From contig CBDCOZ010000003.1 in assembly GCA_965220085.1 (NCBI GenBank), positions 782,979-846,978 of the forward strand: 64,000 nt of DNA, in the 5' to 3' direction. The translations under genes were made by a program, and so were the position numbers. Positions 4,065 through 53,098 of the stretch are shown piece by piece (the stretch's first letter is position 1; each line of letters opens with the position of its first letter). The DNA comes from Candidatus Oxydemutatoraceae bacterium (GTDB taxonomy: Bacteria; Pseudomonadota; Gammaproteobacteria; Poriferisulfidales; Oxydemutatoraceae). The notes beneath the pieces were generated by a model. The model was not told where the DNA came from and searched no databases. It saw nothing but the letters and a program-made list of their open reading frames with translations.

Positions 4065-4081
4065 CCACAAACAGTTTGTGG
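4065..4081. promoter_or_regulatory. perfect palindrome CCACAAACAGTTTGTGG in the long 5' leader; related CACAAACAA/TTGTTTGTG arms recur in the leaders at 15080-15245 and 51236-51262
   Basis: seen on direct reading; conserved between three leaders. Confidence 0.5.
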
Positions 4082-4172
4082 AGCACAATCGGTATTAAAT
4101 GTTGCTTGTGTGCATATACCGCATAGCTAAATTTATCAAAATTATTAGATACATGATATCAGGAGAGTAACT

Positions 4173-5760
4173 ATGAATTACAAATACTTTGGTATAACTA
4201 CCCCCCCCCCCCCCCCCCCCGCGTTGTCAGGGCAGGATAACCCGGCATAGCCTCTGGCCGCTCACTCTGCTGGCCCTGTTTGCGCTCTGCGCTCAGGCGC
4301 AAGCGCAGAACGCCACTGGCATGCCGGAGGTCACTTACGTCAGCGGCATAACCGTTCCCACTGAGGACTCCGCCATCACCGCATCTCAGGGCACCATAGC
4401 CGACCCGGACAATACGCCCACCACCACGGTCGGCGCCCTCAGCTGGCAGTGGAGCATGGCCGACACCAATGGCGGCACCTACACCGCCATCGCCATGGCG
4501 ACCAATGCCGCATTCACTCCGGGCGATGATGAGGTGGGCAAGTTTCTGCAGGTCTGCGCATCGTTCATGGATATGGCCACCACCCCCAATTCGGAGATGC
4601 GATGCCTGCAGATAGCCACCGCTGTGGCCAATGTCAATGACAAGCCGGTATCCATAAACACCAATCTTGTAGTAAATATAAACGCCGATGCCGACAGCCC
4701 TCATCCGCTTCGGGCATCCGACTTCCCGTTCACCGATGCCGACAAAGATATGCTGGCTGGTGTCATCATACATAGCCTGCCCAGCCACGGTACCATGAGT
4801 CTGGATGGCACAGCCCTGACCAGCGACGATGTTCCCACAGCAACCATAACCGTGGCCAAACTGGACGCTGGTGCCCTGACCTATTACCCGACACCAGCCC
4901 AGCGAATGCCGAGCTTCGCAGCAGTCTCCTTCTTCCAGGCCAGGGTGGTGGATGATGGCAGCGATGGCACCGACAACAAGACCAGCATTGGTGCCAACAT
5001 CCTTATCGTTCTGACATCGCCGGACCAGACTGCCGCCAGTGGTGCCCCCACCATAATCCCGTCCACCACCGCCGACAACCCGACCCACGCCGAGGATGCC
5101 CAGTTGACCGCCAGCAGCGATGGCATCACCGAGCCCAATGGCATAGACCGCACCACCCTGAGGTGGCAATGGCAGTCATCCCCCGCCAGCGATGGCGCTT
5201 TTGCAGCCATAAACGGCGCGACCGGGGTGCTATTCACCCCCCTGCAGGCGCATGTGGGCCAATACATCCGGGTCTGCGTCAGTTTCATGGATTTCCACGC
5301 CATGCCGGAGACTGTGGAGGGCCTGTGTTCCGCCGCCGCCCGGGTGCGCAACGTAAACGATGCGCCCCGGGCGCAAAACCGTACGATAAATGTGTCGGTG
5401 GATGCCACGATGAGCGAGCCTTTCAGGTTCGCCGTCGACGACTTTCCCTTTGCCGATGAGGACGATGACAACTTAGTCAACGTGGAGATTGCCAGCCTGC
5501 CGGGTGCCGGCACCCTGCAAATAAACGGCGCTGACGCCACTGTCGGCGATATCATAGAAGCCGATGACATAGACGACTTGGCGTACTATCCCGCCAGCCA
5601 GAATGCCCAGGCCGGCTACGCCGCCTTCACCTTCAAGGTAACCGACGATGGCAGCGATGGCAGCGGCAACAAAACTTCCGGCGCCGCCACAATCACCATC
5701 AATCTCACGGAGCACTTGCGCCTGCGCTTGCGCCTCTTTCTGGAAGGCCCGTTGCGATAG
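4173..5760 (+). CDS. secreted cadherin-like repeat protein, family member A; poly-C frameshift currently out of frame (ON would need 21 C); ends HLRLRLRLFLEGPLR
   Basis: signal peptide LWPLTLLALFALCAQAQA; two SWQWQ-type ~90 aa repeats; cadherin-like motifs NVNDKPV / NVNDAPRA / DDGSDGTDNKTS; paralogous to the genes at 15291-19725, 51346 and 53099. The track ORF 4321-5760 is the in-frame downstream part. Confidence 0.7.
4201..4220 (+). repeat. homopolymeric poly-C tract (20 C) between the ATG-led mini-ORF and the signal peptide of gene A
   Basis: RBS AGGAGAG, ATG 4173, 9 codons, then C20; signal-peptide frame (open from 4198) is +1 relative to the ATG with 20 C. Confidence 0.85.
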
Positions 5761-15000: not shown

Positions 15001-15290
15001 GCGACACTAAGCGTTATATGTACGCAAACAACTCAAGAAGTCACAAATAAAAATATCATTTGTGCCTCATTAAAAGTTGTTTGTGTACATTAAACAATCC
15101 ACAAACAATGGAGTTGTTTGTGTACATATAACGTATAATTGAATTTTCTAAACATAGGAGATACAAACATTTGCAGATGACTTGCATTTTGTGGCAGGGC
15201 ACACAGCAGTAAACAATCACAAACAACGGAGTTGTTTGTGTGCATATGCCGCACAACTGTATTCGCTAGAAACAGGAAATACGAACCATT

Positions 15291-16183
15291 ATGAATAATT
15301 ACATGAATATAAATATATCTAATACCCCCCCCCCCCCCCCCCCCCCCCCCCGCATTGGCGGACAGCACTAACTCGGCTTAGTCTCCGGTCACTTATCCTG
15401 CCGGCCCTGTCTCTGGCATTGGGCGCAACCCATGTTTGGGCCCAGACGAGCAAGAGTGTTAATGCCCCTGTTGGCGGCGGCACATATTATTTCACCGCCG
15501 CAGATTTCGGATTCTCCTCAGGTGTCATCGTGTTTGAGTCGTTGCCCGCTCGTGGCAACTTCCAGCGATACAGTAACGGAAATCCCGCGGCTATCATTCC
15601 AGGGATTATCGACGACCACCAAGCCACCCATTTCTTTGCCGACGCCTTTGGCGGTGCCGGCTCCGACGACAGGTTGGAGTACAGGACTCCTGCCGATGCT
15701 GTTTCCATCGCCACTGGCTATACCAGCTTTATCTACCAACATTCTGCTGACGGTGGTATCACCCGCACCATGTTCACCATGACCATCAACCTGGCGGGGG
15801 CATCCACGCCGACGGCCGCCAGCGGTGCGCCCACAATTGCCGCCACAGACACGCACCGGATTAGAGCTTCCATCACCGGTGTGACGGACCGCAACGGCAT
15901 TGATGTCGGCACCCTGAGTTGGCAGTGGCAACAGGCCGCCGCACCTGCCAGCGGTGTTCCTGAAACCGATGACTATGACGACATAGAGGATGCTACTTCC
16001 TCCCTCTTCGCACCGACTGCCGCCCAACTGAGCAGGTATGTGCGCACCTGCGTTTCTTTCAAGGATCAGTCTCCCACGCCCGCATCGGAAGGGCCGCTGT
16101 GTAGCGCCGGCCTTCGGGTGACAGAGTTGCCGTCTGAGATACGCTTGCGGTTGCGCCTCTTCCTGGAGGGCCCCCTGCGATGA
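15291..16183 (+). CDS. family member C1 (first gene of the five-gene array); poly-C currently out of frame
   Basis: track ORF 15419-16183 plus the upstream frame open from 15323; ends ELPSEIRLRLRLFLEGPLR. Confidence 0.7.
15325..15351 (+). repeat. poly-C tract (27 C) between the mini-ORF (ATG 15291) and the signal peptide of array gene 1
   Basis: the ATG frame hits a stop at 15369 with 27 C; 26 or 29 C would fuse it to PHWRTALTRLSLRSLILPAL. Confidence 0.85.
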
Positions 16184-17064
16184 TGCGAGTACTCCGCCCC
16201 TTCCCGCATTGGCGGACAGCACTAACTCGGCTTAGTCTCCGGTCACTTATCCTGCCGGCGCTGTGTCTGGCATTGGGCGCAACTTATGTTTGGGCCCAGG
16301 CGACAGATCAGAGCATTGATGTCCCGATAGGCGGCAACGCCTATACCATCACGGCTGCCGACTTTGGCTTTGATGATATCACTGCCGGAAGCGCCCTTAC
16401 GATCATGACGGTCGGGTCTTTGCCTGCTCTCGGCAACTTACAGCGATACACAGGTGGGAATCCTGCGAATCTGCGTTTGGCTTCTGACCCAAATGCAAGT
16501 ACTTTCTTTGAAACAGGTCTTGGCGGTCTTGACGGCGCCGGCTCCGACGACAGGTTGGATTATACGCCTCCTGCCGATGCTGTTTCCGTTGCCGCCGGCT
16601 ATGCCAGCTTTGCCTTTCATATTTCCACCGATGCTATTACCGATACGATGGCCACCATGACCATCAACCTGGTGGGGGCATCCACGCCGACGACCGCCAC
16701 CGGTGCGCCCACAATCTTCGCCACGGACACGCACCAAATCAGAGCTTCCATCACCGGTGTGACGGACCTCAACGGCATTGATGTCGGCACCCTGAGTTGG
16801 CAGTGGCAACAGGCCGATGCCCCCGTCAGTGGCGTTCCCGAAACCGGTGATTACATCGACATAAAGGATGCTACTTCTTCCTCCCTCTTCGCACCGACTG
16901 CCGCCCAACTGAGCAGGTATGTGCGCACCTGCGTTTCTTTCAAGGATCAGTCTCCCACGCCCGCATCGGAAGGGCCGCTGTGTAGCATCGGCATTCTGGT
17001 GACAGAGTTGCCGTCTGAGATACGCCTGCGGTTGCGCCTCTTCCTGGAGGGCCCCCTGCGATGA
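16180..17064 (+). CDS. family member C2 (own signal peptide MMRVLRPFPHWRTALTRLSLRSLILPALCLALGATYVWAQA)
   Basis: ATGA start/stop overlap with C1; GGAGGG in the conserved terminal codons acts as its SD; conserved C-terminal half. Confidence 0.8.
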   Translation: MMRVLRPFPHWRTALTRLSLRSLILPALCLALGATYVWAQATDQSIDVPIGGNAYTITAADFGFDDITAGSALTIMTVGSLPALGNLQRYTGGNPANLRLASDPNASTFFETGLGGLDGAGSDDRLDYTPPADAVSVAAGYASFAFHISTDAITDTMATMTINLVGASTPTTATGAPTIFATDTHQIRASITGVTDLNGIDVGTLSWQWQQADAPVSGVPETGDYIDIKDATSSSLFAPTAAQLSRYVRTCVSFKDQSPTPASEGPLCSIGILVTELPSEIRLRLRLFLEGPLR

Positions 17065-17960
17065 TGCGAGTATTCTGCCCCTTCCCGCATTGGTGGGCGA
17101 TACTAACTCGGCTTAGTCTCCGGTCACTTATCCTGCCGGCGCTGTGTCTGGCATTGGGCGCAACTTATGTTTGGGCCCAGGCGACAGATCAGAGCATTGA
17201 TGTCCCGATAGGCGGCAGCGCCTATACAATCACGGCTGCCGACTTTGGCTTTGATGATATTATCAATACTGGAGCCTCCGATACGATTATGACGGTCGGG
17301 TCTTTGCCTGCTCTCGGCAACTTACGGCGATACACCCGTGGGCGGGTTGTAACTTTACGTGTGGGGAGCCTGACAGATGGCGACACGAGTGTAAGTGCTT
17401 TCTTTGAGACAGGCTTTAACGGTCTTGATGGCGCCGGCTCCGACAACAGGTTGGATTATACGCCTCCTGCCGATGCCGTTTCCGTTGCCGCCGGCTATGC
17501 CAGCTTTGCCTTTTATATTTCCACTGATGGCAGTACCGATACGATGGCCACCATGACCATCAACCTGGTGGGAGCATCCATGCCGACGACCGCCACCGGC
17601 GCGCCCGAAATCGCCGCCACAGACACGCACCGAATCAGAGCTTCCATCACCGGTGTGACGGACCTCAACGGCATTGATGTCGGCACCCTGAGTTGGCAGT
17701 GGCAACAGGCCGATGCGCCCGTCAGCGGTGTTCCCGACACCGGTGATTACATCGACATAAAGGATGCTACTTCTTCCTCCCTCTTCGCACCGACTGCCGC
17801 CCAACTGAGCAGGTATGTGCGCGCCTGCGTTTCTTTCAAGGATCAGTCTCCCACGCCCGCATCGGAAGGGCCGCTGTGTAGCATCGGCATTCTGGTGACA
17901 GAGTTGCCGTCTGAGATACGCCTGCGGTTGCGCCTCTTCCTGGAGGGCCCCCTGCGATGA
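17061..17960 (+). CDS. family member C3
   Basis: same as C2; variable N-terminal half, near-identical C-terminal half. Confidence 0.8.
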   Translation: MMRVFCPFPHWWAILTRLSLRSLILPALCLALGATYVWAQATDQSIDVPIGGSAYTITAADFGFDDIINTGASDTIMTVGSLPALGNLRRYTRGRVVTLRVGSLTDGDTSVSAFFETGFNGLDGAGSDNRLDYTPPADAVSVAAGYASFAFYISTDGSTDTMATMTINLVGASMPTTATGAPEIAATDTHRIRASITGVTDLNGIDVGTLSWQWQQADAPVSGVPDTGDYIDIKDATSSSLFAPTAAQLSRYVRACVSFKDQSPTPASEGPLCSIGILVTELPSEIRLRLRLFLEGPLR

Positions 17961-18838
17961 TGCGAGTATTCCGCCCCTTCCCGCATTGGTGGGCGATACT
18001 AACCCGGCTTAGTCTCCGGTCACTTATTCTGCCGGCGCTGTGTCTGGCATTGGGCGTAACCTGGGCGCAGGCTCAAACTGCCCAGGACCGCAGTGTTGAT
18101 ATCCCCATAGACAGCGATGGTCATCCGTTGCGACTTGCCGATTTCGGGCCTACCTCATCTGCCTCAGGTATAGTTATAATCAAGATCAAGTCGCTACCCG
18201 CTCGTGGCAGCTTACAGCGATACAGTAGTGGAATTCCTGTGCTGCTCGTTGTTGGGGATTTTATCCACGGCAACACAAGCTTTTTCACTTTCTCAACCCT
18301 TGGCGGTGCCGACGCCGATGACAGGTTGGAGTACAGGCCTCCCGCCAATGCTGGTTCCCCCGCCACTGGCTACGACAGCTTTGTCTTCCATTATTCTGTT
18401 GACAGTGGTTTCACGGCCACCACGGCCACCATGACCATCAACCTGGTGGGGGCATCCATGCCGACGACCGCCACCGGCGCACCCACAATCGCCGCCACAG
18501 ACACGCACCGAATCAGAGCTTCCATCACCGGTGTGACGGACCTCAACGGCATTGATGTCGGCACCCTGAGTTGGCAGTGGCAACAGGCCGATGCCCCCGT
18601 CAGCGGTGTTCCCGACACCGGTGATTACATCGACATAAAGGATGCTACTTCTTCCTCCCTCTTCGCACCGACTGCCGCCCAACTGAGCAGGTATGTGCGC
18701 GCCTGCGTTTCTTTCAAGGATCAGTCTCCCACGCCCGCATCGGAAGGGCCGCTGTGTAGCATCGGCATTCTGGTGACAGAGTTGCCGTCTGAGATACGCC
18801 TGCGGTTGCGCCTCTTCCTGGAGGGCCCCCTGCGATGA
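17957..18838 (+). CDS. family member C4
   Basis: same as C2. Confidence 0.8.
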   Translation: MMRVFRPFPHWWAILTRLSLRSLILPALCLALGVTWAQAQTAQDRSVDIPIDSDGHPLRLADFGPTSSASGIVIIKIKSLPARGSLQRYSSGIPVLLVVGDFIHGNTSFFTFSTLGGADADDRLEYRPPANAGSPATGYDSFVFHYSVDSGFTATTATMTINLVGASMPTTATGAPTIAATDTHRIRASITGVTDLNGIDVGTLSWQWQQADAPVSGVPDTGDYIDIKDATSSSLFAPTAAQLSRYVRACVSFKDQSPTPASEGPLCSIGILVTELPSEIRLRLRLFLEGPLR

Positions 18839-49100: not shown

Positions 49101-49566
49101 TTTGCAACTGGTCGGAGCGCCCGCGACCGAGTGTCTGGGAGCTTGTGTGGCGCGCTTGGTCAAAGCGCCCGCTTGTATTTGGTTGCAAGGCGCTTTGGGA
49201 AGCGGCAAGACCACTTTTTGCCGCGGCTTTATCCGCGCTTTGAGCGCCGCCGAAAAAGTCGCGAGTCCGACCTATGCGCTGTTGGAAACCTATGCGGCCA
49301 AAGAGACGACCATCTGCCACTTTGATCTGTATCGCATCAGCAAACCGGATGAACTGGAGTTTATCGGCGTCAGAGACTGTTTTGCCGACGACAACATCTG
49401 TTTGATCGAGTGGCCTGAGAATGCGGGTGCGCTGCCGCCGCCCGATTTGAAGATTACCCTGACGTATGCGGACAAAGAACAAGAGCGTCATGCCGCGGCG
49501 GAGGGCGGCGATACGCAGTTGATTCAGAACATACGACAGGATTATATGCGCCAATGTACCGGCTGA
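49084..49566 (+). CDS. tsaE: tRNA t6A biosynthesis protein TsaE
   Basis: P-loop LQGALGSGKTTF; yjeF-yjeE-amiB order. Confidence 0.85.
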   Translation: MTVAVNLQLVGAPATECLGACVARLVKAPACIWLQGALGSGKTTFCRGFIRALSAAEKVASPTYALLETYAAKETTICHFDLYRISKPDELEFIGVRDCFADDNICLIEWPENAGALPPPDLKITLTYADKEQERHAAAEGGDTQLIQNIRQDYMRQCTG

Positions 49567-50810
49567 TCGCTTGCTTTTTATTGTCGTTCGTCGGCGCCGC
49601 CGTCGCATCCGCCGCCAATGTGGAAGGCATGGCCATCAGCGAGTATCGGCAGAAGACAGAAATCGCGGTGCATCTGGATCGCCTGCCCCGATACGAAGCT
49701 TTCGTTTTGCAGTCGCCGGAACGTCTCGCGCTCAATTTGCACGAAAGCACGGGATGCAAACTCAGGCTGGAGCGCCCGACCAGAGCAATCAGCGAGATAC
49801 GCTCCAAGACCCAAGGCGGCGCCTGCAGCGTATATTTCTATCTGACCACGGCGGTCGACTACAAAGTGGCATCCGCTCAATCGCCCGCGAAACTGGTCAT
49901 CACCATCAGTCAGAAGCCGTCCGCGACGGCCCGCCGCTCGATTACGTTGGGTCGCGATGCGATTATCGTGATCGACCCCGGACACGGCGGCAAGGACCCG
50001 GGAGCCATCGGCGCCGCCGGAACATACGAGAAACATATCACGTTGTCGGTGTCCGAGCATCTGCTGCGCTTAGTCAACGACGCCTACGGCATGCGCGGTT
50101 TTCTGACGCGCGCCGATGATCGCTTTGTCAGTTTGCGCGACCGTCTCAATTTCGCCCAGCGGCATAAGGCCGACATATTCGTTTCCATCCACGCCGATGC
50201 CGCCGCCGACCGCGCGGCGGCGGGCGCGTCGGTCTATATGCTCTCGCCCAAAGGCGCGTCGAGCGAAGCGGCCAGATTATTGGCCCGCCGCGAAAACCAA
50301 GCGGATCTGATCGCCGGCGTTCCGGCGCGCGACGCCGACCCGCAAACCGCGGGCATTCTGCTTGATCTGTCGCAGACCGCCACTCTGGATCACAGCAAAG
50401 CGCTGGCCCGCGAGGTGTTGTCTTCTTTTGGCAAGATCGCAAAAAACAATCGGATTGAAGCCGCCGGTTTTGTCGTTCTGAAGTCGCCCGATATCGTATC
50501 GGTGTTGGTGGAGTCGGGCTATTTGTCCAACCCCAAAGAAGAGAAGCGCTTGCGTACGACGGCGCATCAAAAGCGCGTGGCAAAAGCGGTTCACAGAGGC
50601 ATTAAACGTTATCTCGCGCGCCACCCGACGAGGGACATGTTGCTGTCGTCGGTGCGCATCAAGGATTACAAAGTGGCGAGCGGCGATACCTTGTCGGACA
50701 TCGCATTGCGCTTCCGGACAAAAATATCCGACATCAAAAAGTTATCGGATTTGCCGTCAGATACGATCCGCGTCGGGCAGGTGCTCAAAGTGCCGGTGAC
50801 TCGGGAGTAG
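49554..50810 (+). CDS. amiC: N-acetylmuramoyl-L-alanine amidase (AMIN, Amidase_3 and C-terminal LysM domains)
   Basis: signal peptide, AMIN domain, VIDPGHGGKDPGA zinc-amidase motif, LysM YKVASGDTLSDIA. Confidence 0.85.
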   Translation: MYRLIACFLLSFVGAAVASAANVEGMAISEYRQKTEIAVHLDRLPRYEAFVLQSPERLALNLHESTGCKLRLERPTRAISEIRSKTQGGACSVYFYLTTAVDYKVASAQSPAKLVITISQKPSATARRSITLGRDAIIVIDPGHGGKDPGAIGAAGTYEKHITLSVSEHLLRLVNDAYGMRGFLTRADDRFVSLRDRLNFAQRHKADIFVSIHADAAADRAAAGASVYMLSPKGASSEAARLLARRENQADLIAGVPARDADPQTAGILLDLSQTATLDHSKALAREVLSSFGKIAKNNRIEAAGFVVLKSPDIVSVLVESGYLSNPKEEKRLRTTAHQKRVAKAVHRGIKRYLARHPTRDMLLSSVRIKDYKVASGDTLSDIALRFRTKISDIKKLSDLPSDTIRVGQVLKVPVTRE

Positions 50811-50984: not shown

Positions 50985-51030
50985 CGCCGCCCGCCGCCCC
51001 TGCGTCTGCGCCTTTTCCTTCAAGATCCTT
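50985..51030 (+). pseudogene. orphan remnant of a family-gene 3' end (..RRRPPPLRLRLFLQDP..)
   Basis: degenerate copy of the LRLRLRLFLEGPLR terminus, followed by a leader homologous to 3745-4172. Confidence 0.55.
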
Positions 51031-51113
51031 GCAATAATGCGGGTATCCTGCGGCAGAGAAAGGGAGTATTATGGGGCGCAAACAAGGGGAGCGAGGCAGG
51101 ATACGGAGGCGCT

Positions 51114-51141
51114 TGCAAATGACTTGCTTTGTGGTATAGTG
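51114..51141 (+). promoter_or_regulatory. sigma70-type promoter TTGCAA-16-TATAGT of family gene B
   Basis: near-identical to the 14973-15000 promoter. Confidence 0.6.
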
Positions 51142-51345
51142 CGCCAAAGGAGGGAAACAATGAGCAATTTAACTCTTGCAAATAACTTGCGCCTTGTGGC
51201 AGAGTACAGCACTCAGAGTACGGCACTAAACAGCACACAAGCAGCACTCAGTTGTTTGTGGTTTCTTGAGCGTTGCTTGTGTGCATATACTGTGCAACTG
51301 CATTTGCTAGAAACAGGAAATACATGCCATAAGGAGTAATAGATT

Positions 51346-52612
51346 ATGAATAGACAAGACTTTAATACTACCCCCCCCCCCCCCCCCCCCCCGCGCTATG
51401 TAAAGGTAAGGGGACTGCGGTCGCTTGGCTGTATTGCCTCGCCACCCGCTTTCTGCAAGTACTTCGCCCCTCCGCATTGGCGGGCAACGATGATGCGGCT
51501 TAGCCTCTGGTCGCTGGCCCTGTTCGTCCTGTTCGCCGTCTGCGCTCAGGCGCAGGCGCAAAATGCCACCGGCATACCCGATGTCACCTACGCCAGCGGC
51601 ATAATCGCTCCCACCGAAGATTCCGCCATCACCGCCAACGGCGGCAGCGGTTCCACCGCCATAGCCGACACCGATGGCCTGGGCACTTTCAGTTGGCAAT
51701 GGAGTGCGGCCGATACCAACGGCGGCGCCTACGCCGACATCGCCATGGCGACCAATGCCGCCTTTACTCCGGGCGATGACGAGGTGGGCAAGTTCCTGCG
51801 CGTCTGCGCATCTTTCACGGATAACGCCGGCAACAACGAGGAGCGTTGCCTGCGGATAGCCACCGCCGTGGCCAACATCAACGACAAGCCGGTGCCTATC
51901 GCCAACACAATTTCGGTGAGCACCGCCGCCGATGCCGACAATCCCTATGTCTTCTCTGCGGATGACTTTCCATTCACGGATGTGGACGGCGACATGCTGG
52001 CGGGCATCGAAATAGCCGCCCTGCCAGGAAGAGATTCTACAGCCGGGCCAGGCAGTCCGGGCACCCTGGCATTGAACGGAACGGCCTTGACCGCTGTCCC
52101 CGCAAGCACCATCACCGTAGCCCAACTGGAGGCCGGCGCTCTGACCTATTACCCGCCAGAGGGCGAGCAACCCACCAACCCCAATGACCCCATTGCCAGA
52201 TTAGCCTTCTTCGGCTTTGATGTGGTGGACGATGGCAGTGATGGCAACACCAACAATGTCAGCAATGTGGGCAGAATCATAGACATACGACTGGTGTCGG
52301 TGAGTCAGACTGCCGCCAGCGGCAGACCCAGAATAGCAGTGCTGAATGTTCCCGCCAATATCCACACCCACGCTGAGGGCACCCAACTGAGAGCCGACAC
52401 CGGAGACATCGTCGAACCCAACGGCATAGACCGCAGCACTCTGGAGTGGCAATGGCAGTCATTCTCTGTCGGCGATGGTGTCTTTGCCGACATAAGCGGC
52501 GCCACCGGAGGCGCATTCACCCCGGGCCAGGCCCATGTGGGCATGCGCATCCGCGTCTGCGCCAGTTTTATGGACAATCACGCTATGCCGGAGACTGTGG
52601 AAGACCTGTGCT
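51346..52612 (+). pseudogene. family member B; family homology stops at ~52612, and the frame then runs on into unrelated sequence
   Basis: identical to gene A up to ...HAMPETVE(G/D)LCSA; after that the track ORF 51346-53094 becomes R/H/P/Q-rich nonsense, while the +1 frame encodes an OMP-like C-terminus. Confidence 0.5.
51371..51392 (+). repeat. poly-C tract (22 C), here in frame: MNRQDFNTT-P7-...-MMRLSLWSLALFVLFAVCAQAQA
   Basis: ATG 51346 with RBS AAGGAG; the open frame continues through the tract. Confidence 0.85.
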
Positions 52613-53056
52613 CCGCCTCTATCCGGCAACAGCAGCACCCTGGCGGCCGCCGATGCCTCCATCAACGAGATATCCATAGATGCCCAACTGCGCTATACCA
52701 AAGACAATCTGATGCCCTTTGCCAGCATAACCGCCCGCAAACTTGGTGGCGACCTCAGCCAATCCTTGGCGATGGATCTCAGATTCGGCGCAGACCTGCA
52801 GACCAAACCCGCCACCATCCGCCTGTCCATAATCCGCCAGATAAACGACACCACCCACAAACGCGACAGCCTGAGTCTGGACATAGCCACCAGGCCCAAC
52901 CGCAGCGGCATAACCGCCAGCCTCGGCAGCCGCTACGACAGCATAACGGGCCGCCCACAGTGGCACAGCCGCCTGGGCTGGCAATACCGAAACTTCCAGA
53001 GCTCCCTGCAGGCATCGCCAGACGACTGGCGACTGCAAGCCCGGGTGCGCTGGTAA
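52535..53056 (+). CDS. C-terminal fragment of an outer-membrane beta-barrel protein (beta-signal ...DWRLQARVRW), +1 out of frame with gene B
   Basis: alternating hydrophobic pattern with a terminal aromatic; no start or signal peptide of its own. Confidence 0.45.
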   Translation: MWACASASAPVLWTITLCRRLWKTCAPPLSGNSSTLAAADASINEISIDAQLRYTKDNLMPFASITARKLGGDLSQSLAMDLRFGADLQTKPATIRLSIIRQINDTTHKRDSLSLDIATRPNRSGITASLGSRYDSITGRPQWHSRLGWQYRNFQSSLQASPDDWRLQARVRW

Positions 53057-53098
53057 TCCGGGCGCAAGCCCACTCATCCATCAACCATACATAGGAGT

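Follow-up and report, generated by a model that had tools for sequence, protein, structure and literature searches.

Gene B is a probable deletion-derived chimera that carries an out-of-frame relic of a type Va autotransporter barrel

Gene B is a single continuous open reading frame (ORF) of 582 aa (51346-53094, + strand) in a 64,000-nt stretch of contig CBDCOZ010000003.1 from Candidatus Oxydemutatoraceae bacterium; the whole stretch is referred to as the window, and coordinates without a prefix are positions within it. Our analysis indicates that gene B is very probably a deletion-derived chimera and pseudogene, in which the signal peptide and passenger of a secreted protein with Ig-like and cadherin-like domains run into the out-of-frame relic of an autotransporter barrel. 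Four things behind this reading were observed directly: where the break lies, what the tail is, that the window lacks the missing parts, and that relatives possess full passenger-linker-barrel genes. Beyond the 64,000-nt window, the source genome was covered through its annotated proteins. Proteins are designated by P-numbers and contig loci by L-numbers, e.g., L001-L003, L084 and L085 from the related metagenome ENA ERZ25072196. The source-genome annotation contains the identical ORF (P0005, 100% identity to gene B, on a 2,046,636-bp contig), which is the sole member of its cluster. An earlier note, made from the letters of the DNA alone, had described gene B as a family N-terminus joined out of frame to the C-terminus of an outer-membrane beta-barrel, and the alignments with paralog P0006 and locus L085, together with the codon statistics, confirm that description.

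Architecture of gene B and position of the breakpoint

The ORF of gene B opens with ATGAAT, in a start context that resembles those of gene 53099, P0006 and P0007. The leader extension (MNRQDFNTTPPPPPPPR...) is read in the same frame as the body and is followed by a predicted Sec-type signal peptide, MMRLSLWSLALFVLFAVCAQAQAQ, assigned by inspection, whose ...CAQAQAQ motif is also found in ~20 paralogs. The passenger of ~355 residues consists of an Ig-like 'WQW', a cadherin-like and a second Ig-like 'WQW' domain, and ends in ...ETVEDLCSASIR. It is 93% identical without gaps to the passenger of P0006, 60% identical to gene A (4321-5760) and 57% identical to the passenger of the autotransporter P0012. 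About 20 paralogs share 40-63% identity with the leader, signal peptide and passenger of gene B, which places it in the family by homology; matches to known domains are weak (ZirU_fam, E=2.9e-8; SCAB-Ig; Cadherin_3/4 in paralogs). Between the poly-C tract of the leader and the conserved 'PHWR' leader segment, gene B carries ~80 extra nt (51393-51480, RYVKVRGLRSLGCIASPPAFCKYFAP) that are found neither in the array head gene nor in P0006 and that may be an insertion.

The BLASTP match between gene B and gene A (60% identity) ends at residue 379 of gene B, counted from Met 51490, which corresponds to nucleotide 52626; the two proteins part at ...LCSASIR and ...LCSAAAR, and their DNA-level match stops at 52617 (blastn). 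The closest paralog, P0006, located on the same 2.05-Mb contig, is identical to gene B at 353 of 379 residues without gaps, including the last 19, and its match also ends at residue 379. The break is therefore placed at 52626|52627, ~14 nt downstream of the ~52612 given in the earlier note. Beyond the break, P0006 continues with VTNANDAP..., a third (cadherin-like) domain, and then LRLRLRLFLEGPLR-stop, the C-terminal tag of the family. The homology to P0006 is thus interrupted in the middle of an inter-domain linker (SIR|VTNANDAP) and not at the end of a domain.

Downstream of the break, the annotated frame starts with QQQHPGGRRCLHQRD... and consists of P, Q, R and H for 51% of its 155 aa (52627-53091), with a GC content by codon position of 0.755/0.542/0.523 versus ~0.6/0.45/0.72 in real genes of the window and a codon-usage log-odds of -56.6 bits, in agreement with the initial description of this segment as low-complexity nonsense. 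In the +1 frame (52628-53053), the GC content of third codon positions is 0.775 and the codon log-odds is +47 bits. Comparison of the two log-odds values identifies the barrel frame as the coding frame. No LRLRLRLFLEGPLR-stop is found in any frame of 52627-53094; gene B consequently lacks the ending of a tag-type family member, and no single-base correction restores a normal family C-terminus.

The barrel relic

By tblastn, the +1-frame tail matches the C-terminal 143 residues of L001:10796-18775, an intact autotransporter of 2659 aa, with 65% identity (E=1e-54), and it shares 50-73% identity with 13 further barrel sequences. For the PF03797 beta-domains of ERZ25072196, the identity of the 142 aa to their C-terminal half is 65-73%. 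All homologs end in ...RLxARLxW, with an invariant terminal W, and the window tail (RLQARVRW) ends in ...DWRLQARVRW-stop, as expected of an outer-membrane beta-signal; the beta-barrel tail recognized in the earlier note is upheld by both the homology and the codon statistics. A search of 5.8 billion proteins with the tail revealed only four homologs, all short ORFs of ENA/Logan assemblies, while a search with the full beta-domain retrieved 11 proteins, eight of them PF03797-positive. Among the members of a 14-sequence alignment (A4), 8 matched PF03797 (best E 4.8e-14), and the full-length homologs scored 45.2, 46.6 and 43.4 bits, versus a gathering cutoff of 26 bits. The proposal that BLAST would reveal the barrel family was borne out, as the tail matches PF03797 autotransporter beta-domains.

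In the same alignment, the window tail corresponds to the distal ~143 of ~295 beta-domain residues, and ~170 proximal barrel residues are absent. When the 64-kb window was searched by tblastn with the intact homolog, only residues 2518-2660 were matched, and the linker of the homologs (...SLLxRLQSMAxGDIA...) has no counterpart anywhere in the window. Gene B therefore possesses a signal peptide and a passenger, with the barrel remnant lying in the +1 frame from 52627 and not in one frame with them. The tail is accordingly a fragment of a member of the PF03797 autotransporter family rather than a member itself.

At the DNA level, 52627-53125 matches L085:10408-10907 with 82.5% identity over 503 bp (blastn), and the match begins exactly at 52627. 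It extends past the barrel stop codon (53054-53056) and the 42-nt spacer into the next gene, of which it covers the first 27 nt (ATGAACATCACGGCATTTTTC), and its final ~250 nt are ~95% identical. Based on this collinearity, the tail has kept its native surroundings on the 3' side, where the barrel end is followed by the spacer and then by the next family gene, an order also seen in the tandem autotransporter arrays of the relative. The tail contains no stops and no indels. Three substitutions fall at otherwise invariant columns, all of them within a stretch of identical DNA in the L085 barrel, and hence they are not private to the window; the L085 copy, at 5x coverage, has three extra bases relative to the window. 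Given the lack of stops, indels and private decay, we infer that the deletion, and with it the relic, is evolutionarily young.

Autotransporter relatives in a related metagenome

Within one ORF, the relatives in ERZ25072196 follow the canonical layout, from signal peptide through passenger and linker to the C-terminal barrel. L001:10796-18775 combines Ig-like/cadherin-like passenger repeats, as in the family of gene B, with a linker and a beta-domain that matches PF03797 (E=1.3e-11, 45 bits); L001, L002 and L003 carry both barrel halves, and the autotransporter genes of the relative are arranged in tandem arrays. In P0012, the three-domain passenger of gene B (57% identity) is joined directly to linker and barrel, and the L085 autotransporter, the best DNA match of the tail, has an unrelated He_PIG passenger. 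The earlier suggestion that gene B could be the fossil of a passenger-barrel fusion gains support from these genes, in which PF03797 domains are fused to similar passengers in one ORF.

The short homologs of the tail proved to be the distal pieces of autotransporter genes that are interrupted by single-base frameshifts, on contigs of 2-8x coverage; the frameshifts gave rise to the artefactual 'standalone tail' proteins P0001-P0003 and P0043. These frameshifts are probably read errors, with pseudogenisation as the alternative. A shared programmed site behind them was considered and rejected, given that their positions and contexts differ and the contigs have 2-8x coverage. The PF03797 match (profile 1-247 of 255) stops ~67 residues short of the C-terminus in P0034 and in L001:17498-18772, leaving residues 247-313 and 360-425, respectively, beyond it, and this barrel subfamily may have extra C-terminal strands relative to the Pfam model.

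The tail profile detected no relative in species-representative genome contigs and 0 relatives in metagenome contigs. A search of the species-representative contigs with AmiC, encoded upstream of gene B, returned only proteins of 31-50% identity (Alteromonas, Burkholderiaceae and others), indicating that the source organism is without a close relative among the GTDB species representatives. Among the annotated proteins of the source genome, none matched the tail or the full beta-domain when these served as queries. The relic in gene B is the only barrel trace found for the source genome, whose family otherwise ends in the tag.

Proposed origin of gene B

The first 427 codons of gene B (379 from the signal-peptide Met) are those of a normal member of the Ig-like/cadherin-like secreted family. 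In the proposed scenario, an illegitimate deletion or recombination would have fused the last passenger nucleotide, 52626, to mid-beta-domain sequence of a type Va autotransporter gene located upstream of 53099. Lost in this event would have been what was left of the passenger (and/or an entire passenger in between), together with the alpha-helical linker and the proximal barrel half. Owing to the out-of-frame join, 155 nonsense codons would be translated and the 142 barrel codons would remain untranslated; even an in-frame join would yield about half a barrel without a linker, unable to translocate a passenger. The tail DNA may survive partly as the native 5' flank of a co-transcribed downstream gene. 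The earlier note had offered a recombination scar truncating gene B at about 420 aa and a fossil of a passenger-barrel fusion as alternatives. Truncation occurs at residue 427 from ATG 51346, and the evidence supports the view that both describe one and the same event.

Two donor arrangements can be envisaged. We give somewhat better than even chances to a tag-type gene B, similar to P0006, that had a distinct autotransporter gene next to it downstream; a single deletion reaching across the two would have removed the last ~150 codons of gene B, the spacer and the autotransporter up to mid-barrel. In favour of this, the close paralogs are all tag-type, and the best DNA match of the tail is an autotransporter with a He_PIG passenger. 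The other arrangement, with chances a little short of even, is that gene B started out as an autotransporter and underwent an internal deletion: P0012 carries the passenger type of gene B on linker and barrel, and the deletion required is shorter. Under either arrangement, the product of gene B has neither a tag nor a usable barrel.

Several results weigh against a deletion-derived pseudogene with a barrel relic. The 146-aa window tail has no Pfam match at E<=1, and the NCBIfam search of the tail alone returned no match. AlphaFold2 modelled the tail as an all-beta structure of 9 strands, at a weak predicted local distance difference test (pLDDT) score of 62.6; the full-barrel model (P0034, 14 sequences) reached a pLDDT of 42 and was unusable. 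Foldseek against PDB with the tail model gave no outer-membrane-protein match, and PDB sequence searches with the full beta-domain and with the A4 profile revealed no relative. With no Pfam match for the tail and uninformative structure prediction, the barrel identity rests on homology to PF03797-positive proteins; the homologs themselves dispose of the possibility, raised in the earlier note, that the downstream frame has no outer-membrane-protein relatives. An undecayed tail is also compatible with some retained function. In addition, within the annotated proteins and the 64-kb window, intact barrels of the source genome could be unannotated or beyond the reach of a word-seeded search. Finally, a single-base assembly error at the junction is possible, and it would leave the missing half barrel and linker unaffected.

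In one rival reading, a sequencing or assembly indel near 52615-52630 hides an in-frame miniature autotransporter made of a signal peptide, a 355-aa passenger and a 143-aa barrel. The +1 ORF is uninterrupted over 146 codons and shows good conservation, and the scattered single-base frameshifts of the low-coverage ERZ contigs demonstrate that such errors occur. Nevertheless, we consider it very unlikely, as there is no homopolymer at the junction, the tail comprises the distal half only, without the linker helix and proximal strands that all 10 longer homologs have, and the homology to P0006 breaks mid-linker. A single-base change of the kind suggested in the earlier note would put the fusion in frame and still give only a half barrel without a linker. 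A mis-join of two distant loci at 52626/52627 by the assembler is conceivable in a highly repetitive family of >60 paralogs, a setting prone to such errors. Yet the junction has no repeat and the window no second copy of the tail DNA, the neighbours on each side are collinear and make sense (upstream, the 5' block and passenger; downstream, the native spacer and next gene) and the contig spans 2.05 Mb, which leaves only a slim chance of an assembly chimera.

It is still less probable that ORF 52535-53056 is an independent functional gene for a small outer-membrane protein overlapping gene B. This ORF has an ATG start, 173 codons and ~9 beta-strands in the AlphaFold2 model, and 8-stranded barrels such as OmpX are of similar size. 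However, its first 31 codons are passenger sequence read out of frame and its homology begins exactly at the breakpoint; by inspection, it has neither a Shine-Dalgarno sequence nor a credible signal peptide. The 'standalone' homologs P0001-P0003 are artefacts of frameshifted full barrels, and Foldseek gave no outer-membrane-protein match. Programmed +1 ribosomal frameshifting, producing a functional passenger-half-barrel fusion (e.g., with two half barrels pairing), draws on the intact +1 frame and on nothing else, whereas no slippery or stimulatory motif is present at ATC CGG CAA CAG and no homolog with a passenger-half-barrel architecture was found; we regard it as extremely improbable. A deletion-derived pseudogene accordingly remains the preferred reading, and gene B as an object is of an ordinary kind, i.e., a degraded autotransporter-family member fused to a paralog. 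Its annotation needs fixing, with one third of the 582-aa protein being nonsense and a barrel fragment hidden in another frame.

The C-terminal tag and the paralog family

Besides gene B, the window contains seven other family members, namely gene A, a five-gene array (15419-19725) and gene 53099-54457, identified by tblastn and ORF translation. Every intact window member ends in LRLRLRLFLEGPLR-stop (7 copies, chance expectation 0.00). Among these copies, 11 of 12 codons of the tag DNA vary and every difference is synonymous, so selection acts on the peptide. A tag profile built from the last ~35 residues of family members was compared with 1.84 billion representative proteins and identified 65 clusters, with nearly all matches exactly at the protein C-terminus and nearly all from the source genome; of ten clusters checked, nine were on the 2.05-Mb contig of the source genome and one came from a Logan assembly. 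More than 60 secreted proteins of the source genome end in the tag, which is also found on unrelated passengers (PPC repeats, fn3, Cys-rich proteins). The tag has no NCBIfam match, no paper was found for 'FLEGPL' in the searchable literature, and a degenerate tag DNA pattern gave 0 matches in metagenome contigs of the Joint Genome Institute (JGI). The tag is a candidate for a new sorting signal. Read-through of the end of a non-coding mobile element was rejected as its source, given that 11 of 11 variable codons are synonymous and that the tag stands on unrelated passengers.

The five ~295-aa genes of the array are arranged head-to-tail, each stop overlapping the next start (CGATGATGCGA). Non-array genes have, following their stop, a sequence (TAGCGCGnGTA) similar to this stop/start junction, which suggests that all copies derive from arrays.

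P0047 of the source genome (642 aa, tag-type) and P0105 of ERZ25072196 (1269 aa, on a 232,989-bp contig) share ~97% identity over ~585 passenger residues. P0047 ends in DNLNLRLRLRLFLEGPLR, while P0105 continues for ~650 residues that comprise two additional passenger domains, a linker and, at 973-1202, a PF03797 barrel. Their 5' ends differ as well, the tag protein having a poly-Pro leader and the barrel protein an ordinary signal peptide. It appears that the modules at both ends, 5' and 3', were exchanged very recently while the passenger between them stayed conserved. A tentative possibility, which we hold at rather less than even odds, is that a recent genome-wide switch replaced the type Va translocator of this adhesin-like family with the tag LRLRLRLFLEGPLR, which would then be an undescribed surface-sorting or secretion signal. 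The tag on >60 signal-peptide proteins, its synonymous variation and the replacement of ~650 residues including the barrel between P0047 and P0105 fit such a switch, as does the gating of many tag genes by leader poly-C tracts.

The relic in gene B shows that the Ig-like/cadherin-like surface family descends from, or lived alongside, type Va autotransporters, which close relatives still encode, sometimes with nearly identical passengers. The earlier note had expected the barrel to bear on how the family reaches the surface. The link to barrels holds, and the present route in this genome is ascribed to the 14-residue C-terminal tag and not to the barrel; the relic turns the question of the surface route into one about the function of the tag that now stands at the former place of the translocator.

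Poly-C tracts in the leaders

Three poly-C tracts are present in the window, each in the leader of a family head gene after an ATGAA start: 4201-4220 (20 C), 15325-15351 (27 C) and, in gene B, a tract of 22 C with a chance expectation of 0.11. As read from one assembly, gene B is in frame (ON), while gene A (ATG 4173) and the array head (ATG 15291 or 15303) are out of frame (OFF); for this reason, the annotation of the latter two begins at internal codons. Several paralogs contain PPPPP in the leader or start at 'MP.V.Y'. These homopolymers lie in the coding 5' end and set the reading frame, which resembles phase variation by strand slippage in a family of contingency genes. The 5' block that contains the tract in gene B is 77.6% identical to 15231-15353 and 72.8% identical to 4101-4223 (blastn). 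A conserved inverted repeat, CACAAnC...GTTTGTG, is located upstream of each poly-C head gene (51236-51260, 15220-15243 and ~4066-4085), and the copy at 51236 scored as terminator-like.

Neighbouring sequence and other scars

The locus contains a second scar, upstream of gene B. The segment 50996-51067 is 75% identical in nucleotides to 54415-54485 (the tag and flank of gene 53099), a motif scan identified it as a degenerate tag copy, and it is the remnant of a deleted family gene. Downstream of the relic, the first 27 nt of gene 53099 are those conserved with the gene following the barrel in L085. A promoter scan of the locus revealed no promoter-like site belonging to gene 53099 itself, and the only + strand match is at 51113-51140, upstream of gene B; it is a candidate promoter of gene B and probably serves gene 53099 too, based on consensus similarity. 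Gene 53099 is thus probably co-transcribed with gene B, and co-transcription may help explain why the tail DNA was retained.

Comparable scars were noticed elsewhere. At L001:4205-4276, a 24-codon barrel-end relic (GRLQTSLQASPGDYRLKARLHW) follows the stop of an unrelated gene and precedes the next family gene, a scar as in gene B. In the source genome, P0050 (149 aa) is a chimera of ~80 non-family, enzyme-like N-terminal residues with the last ~60 passenger residues and the tag. Deletion fusions seem to be common around the family. Further downstream, a 182-bp tandem repeat (55330-55874; 3.0 copies, 98% identity) triplicates the 3' end of a minus-strand DUF2063 gene and also overlaps the redoxin gene region at the end of the latter. 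The coordinates of the features are listed in Table 1.

Table 1. Features of the gene B locus, tag copies of the window and barrel frameshifts of the relative
Feature	Position	Strand	Basis or remark
amiC	49554-50810		upstream of gene B
Decayed 3' end of another family gene (PLRLRLFLQDPCNN, stop lost) with downstream flank	50996-51067	+	just after amiC
Sigma-70-like promoter match TTGCAA-16-TATAGT with TG extension (candidate)	51113-51140	+	consensus match; such matches no more frequent than in shuffled sequence
Conserved 5' block	51272-51396	+	upstream region, ATGAA start and poly-C tract; common to family 'head' genes
N-terminal leader extension	51346-51489	+	same frame as body, one ORF
Poly-C tract, 22 C	51371-51392	+	inside leader coding sequence
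Sec-type signal peptide (predicted)	51490-51561	+	by inspection; starts at Met 51490
Passenger	51562-52626	+	three domains
Breakpoint	52624-52630	+	last passenger codon CGG 52624-52626; barrel-derived DNA from 52627, its codons in the +1 frame
Out-of-frame read-through, 155 residues and stop codon	52627-53094	+	composition and codon statistics
C-terminal ~half of type Va autotransporter beta-domain, 142 codons and TAA, ending DWRLQARVRW	52628-53056	+	homology to PF03797-positive proteins
Barrel-to-next-gene spacer, 42 nt, with AGGAG ribosome-binding site	53057-53098	+	collinear with L085:10841-10886
Downstream intact family gene, 452 aa	53099-54457	+	ends in tag LRLRLRLFLEGPLR (54416-54454)
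Tag copies	5719-5760, 16142-16183, 17023-17064, 17919-17960, 18797-18838, 19684-19725, 54416-54457		strictly C-terminal, 14 residues
Frameshifts in the relative's barrels	L001:9969-9971, L002:9759-9761, L003:~1113-1124, L084:~1870, L085:10623/10635/10677		positions differ

Comparison with known systems

The closest likeness of the gene B tail is to the distal beta-domain of type Va autotransporters (PF03797), including the terminal aromatic residue (...RVRW). In contrast to these proteins, gene B keeps 143 of ~295 domain residues, out of frame and without a linker, and no solved structure is detectable by sequence. The usual passenger of a type Va autotransporter is a beta-helix; those of this family are Ig-like/cadherin-like repeats, and the subfamily extends ~67 aa past the end of the Pfam match. 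Surface families that decay by deletion or frameshift and leave barrel or passenger fragments are familiar from the Rickettsia sca genes and the autotransporter pseudogenes of Bordetella pertussis. Gene B differs from these in that the fusion partner of its fragment is a paralog whose normal ending is a different, short C-terminal tag, in a genome where no annotated intact barrel of the type was found.

The 'WQW...FTP...VG..xRVC' domain of gene B (residues 63-106) matches ZirU_fam (NCBIfam NF040485; E=2.9e-8), the family of Salmonella ZirU/ZirS; at 34 bits against a cutoff of 100 bits, the match falls far short and is limited to a domain-level resemblance. Faint matches to SCAB-Ig (PF16709) were observed in relatives.

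Short C-terminal sorting tags are known from the PEP-CTERM/exosortase, GlyGly-CTERM/rhombosortase and LPXTG/sortase systems. Unlike them, LRLRLRLFLEGPLR lacks both a transmembrane helix and a basic tail, has the look of an amphipathic beta-strand and has no identified partner enzyme. Like them, it is strictly C-terminal, conserved and carried by dozens of signal-peptide proteins with unrelated passengers in one genome. The leader repeats of Neisseria opa genes and the poly-C tract of Bordetella fim are phase-variable contingency loci of surface proteins, and the poly-C tracts of the window (20-27 nt) resemble them in their location within the leader coding region and in the presence of both in-frame and out-of-frame states.

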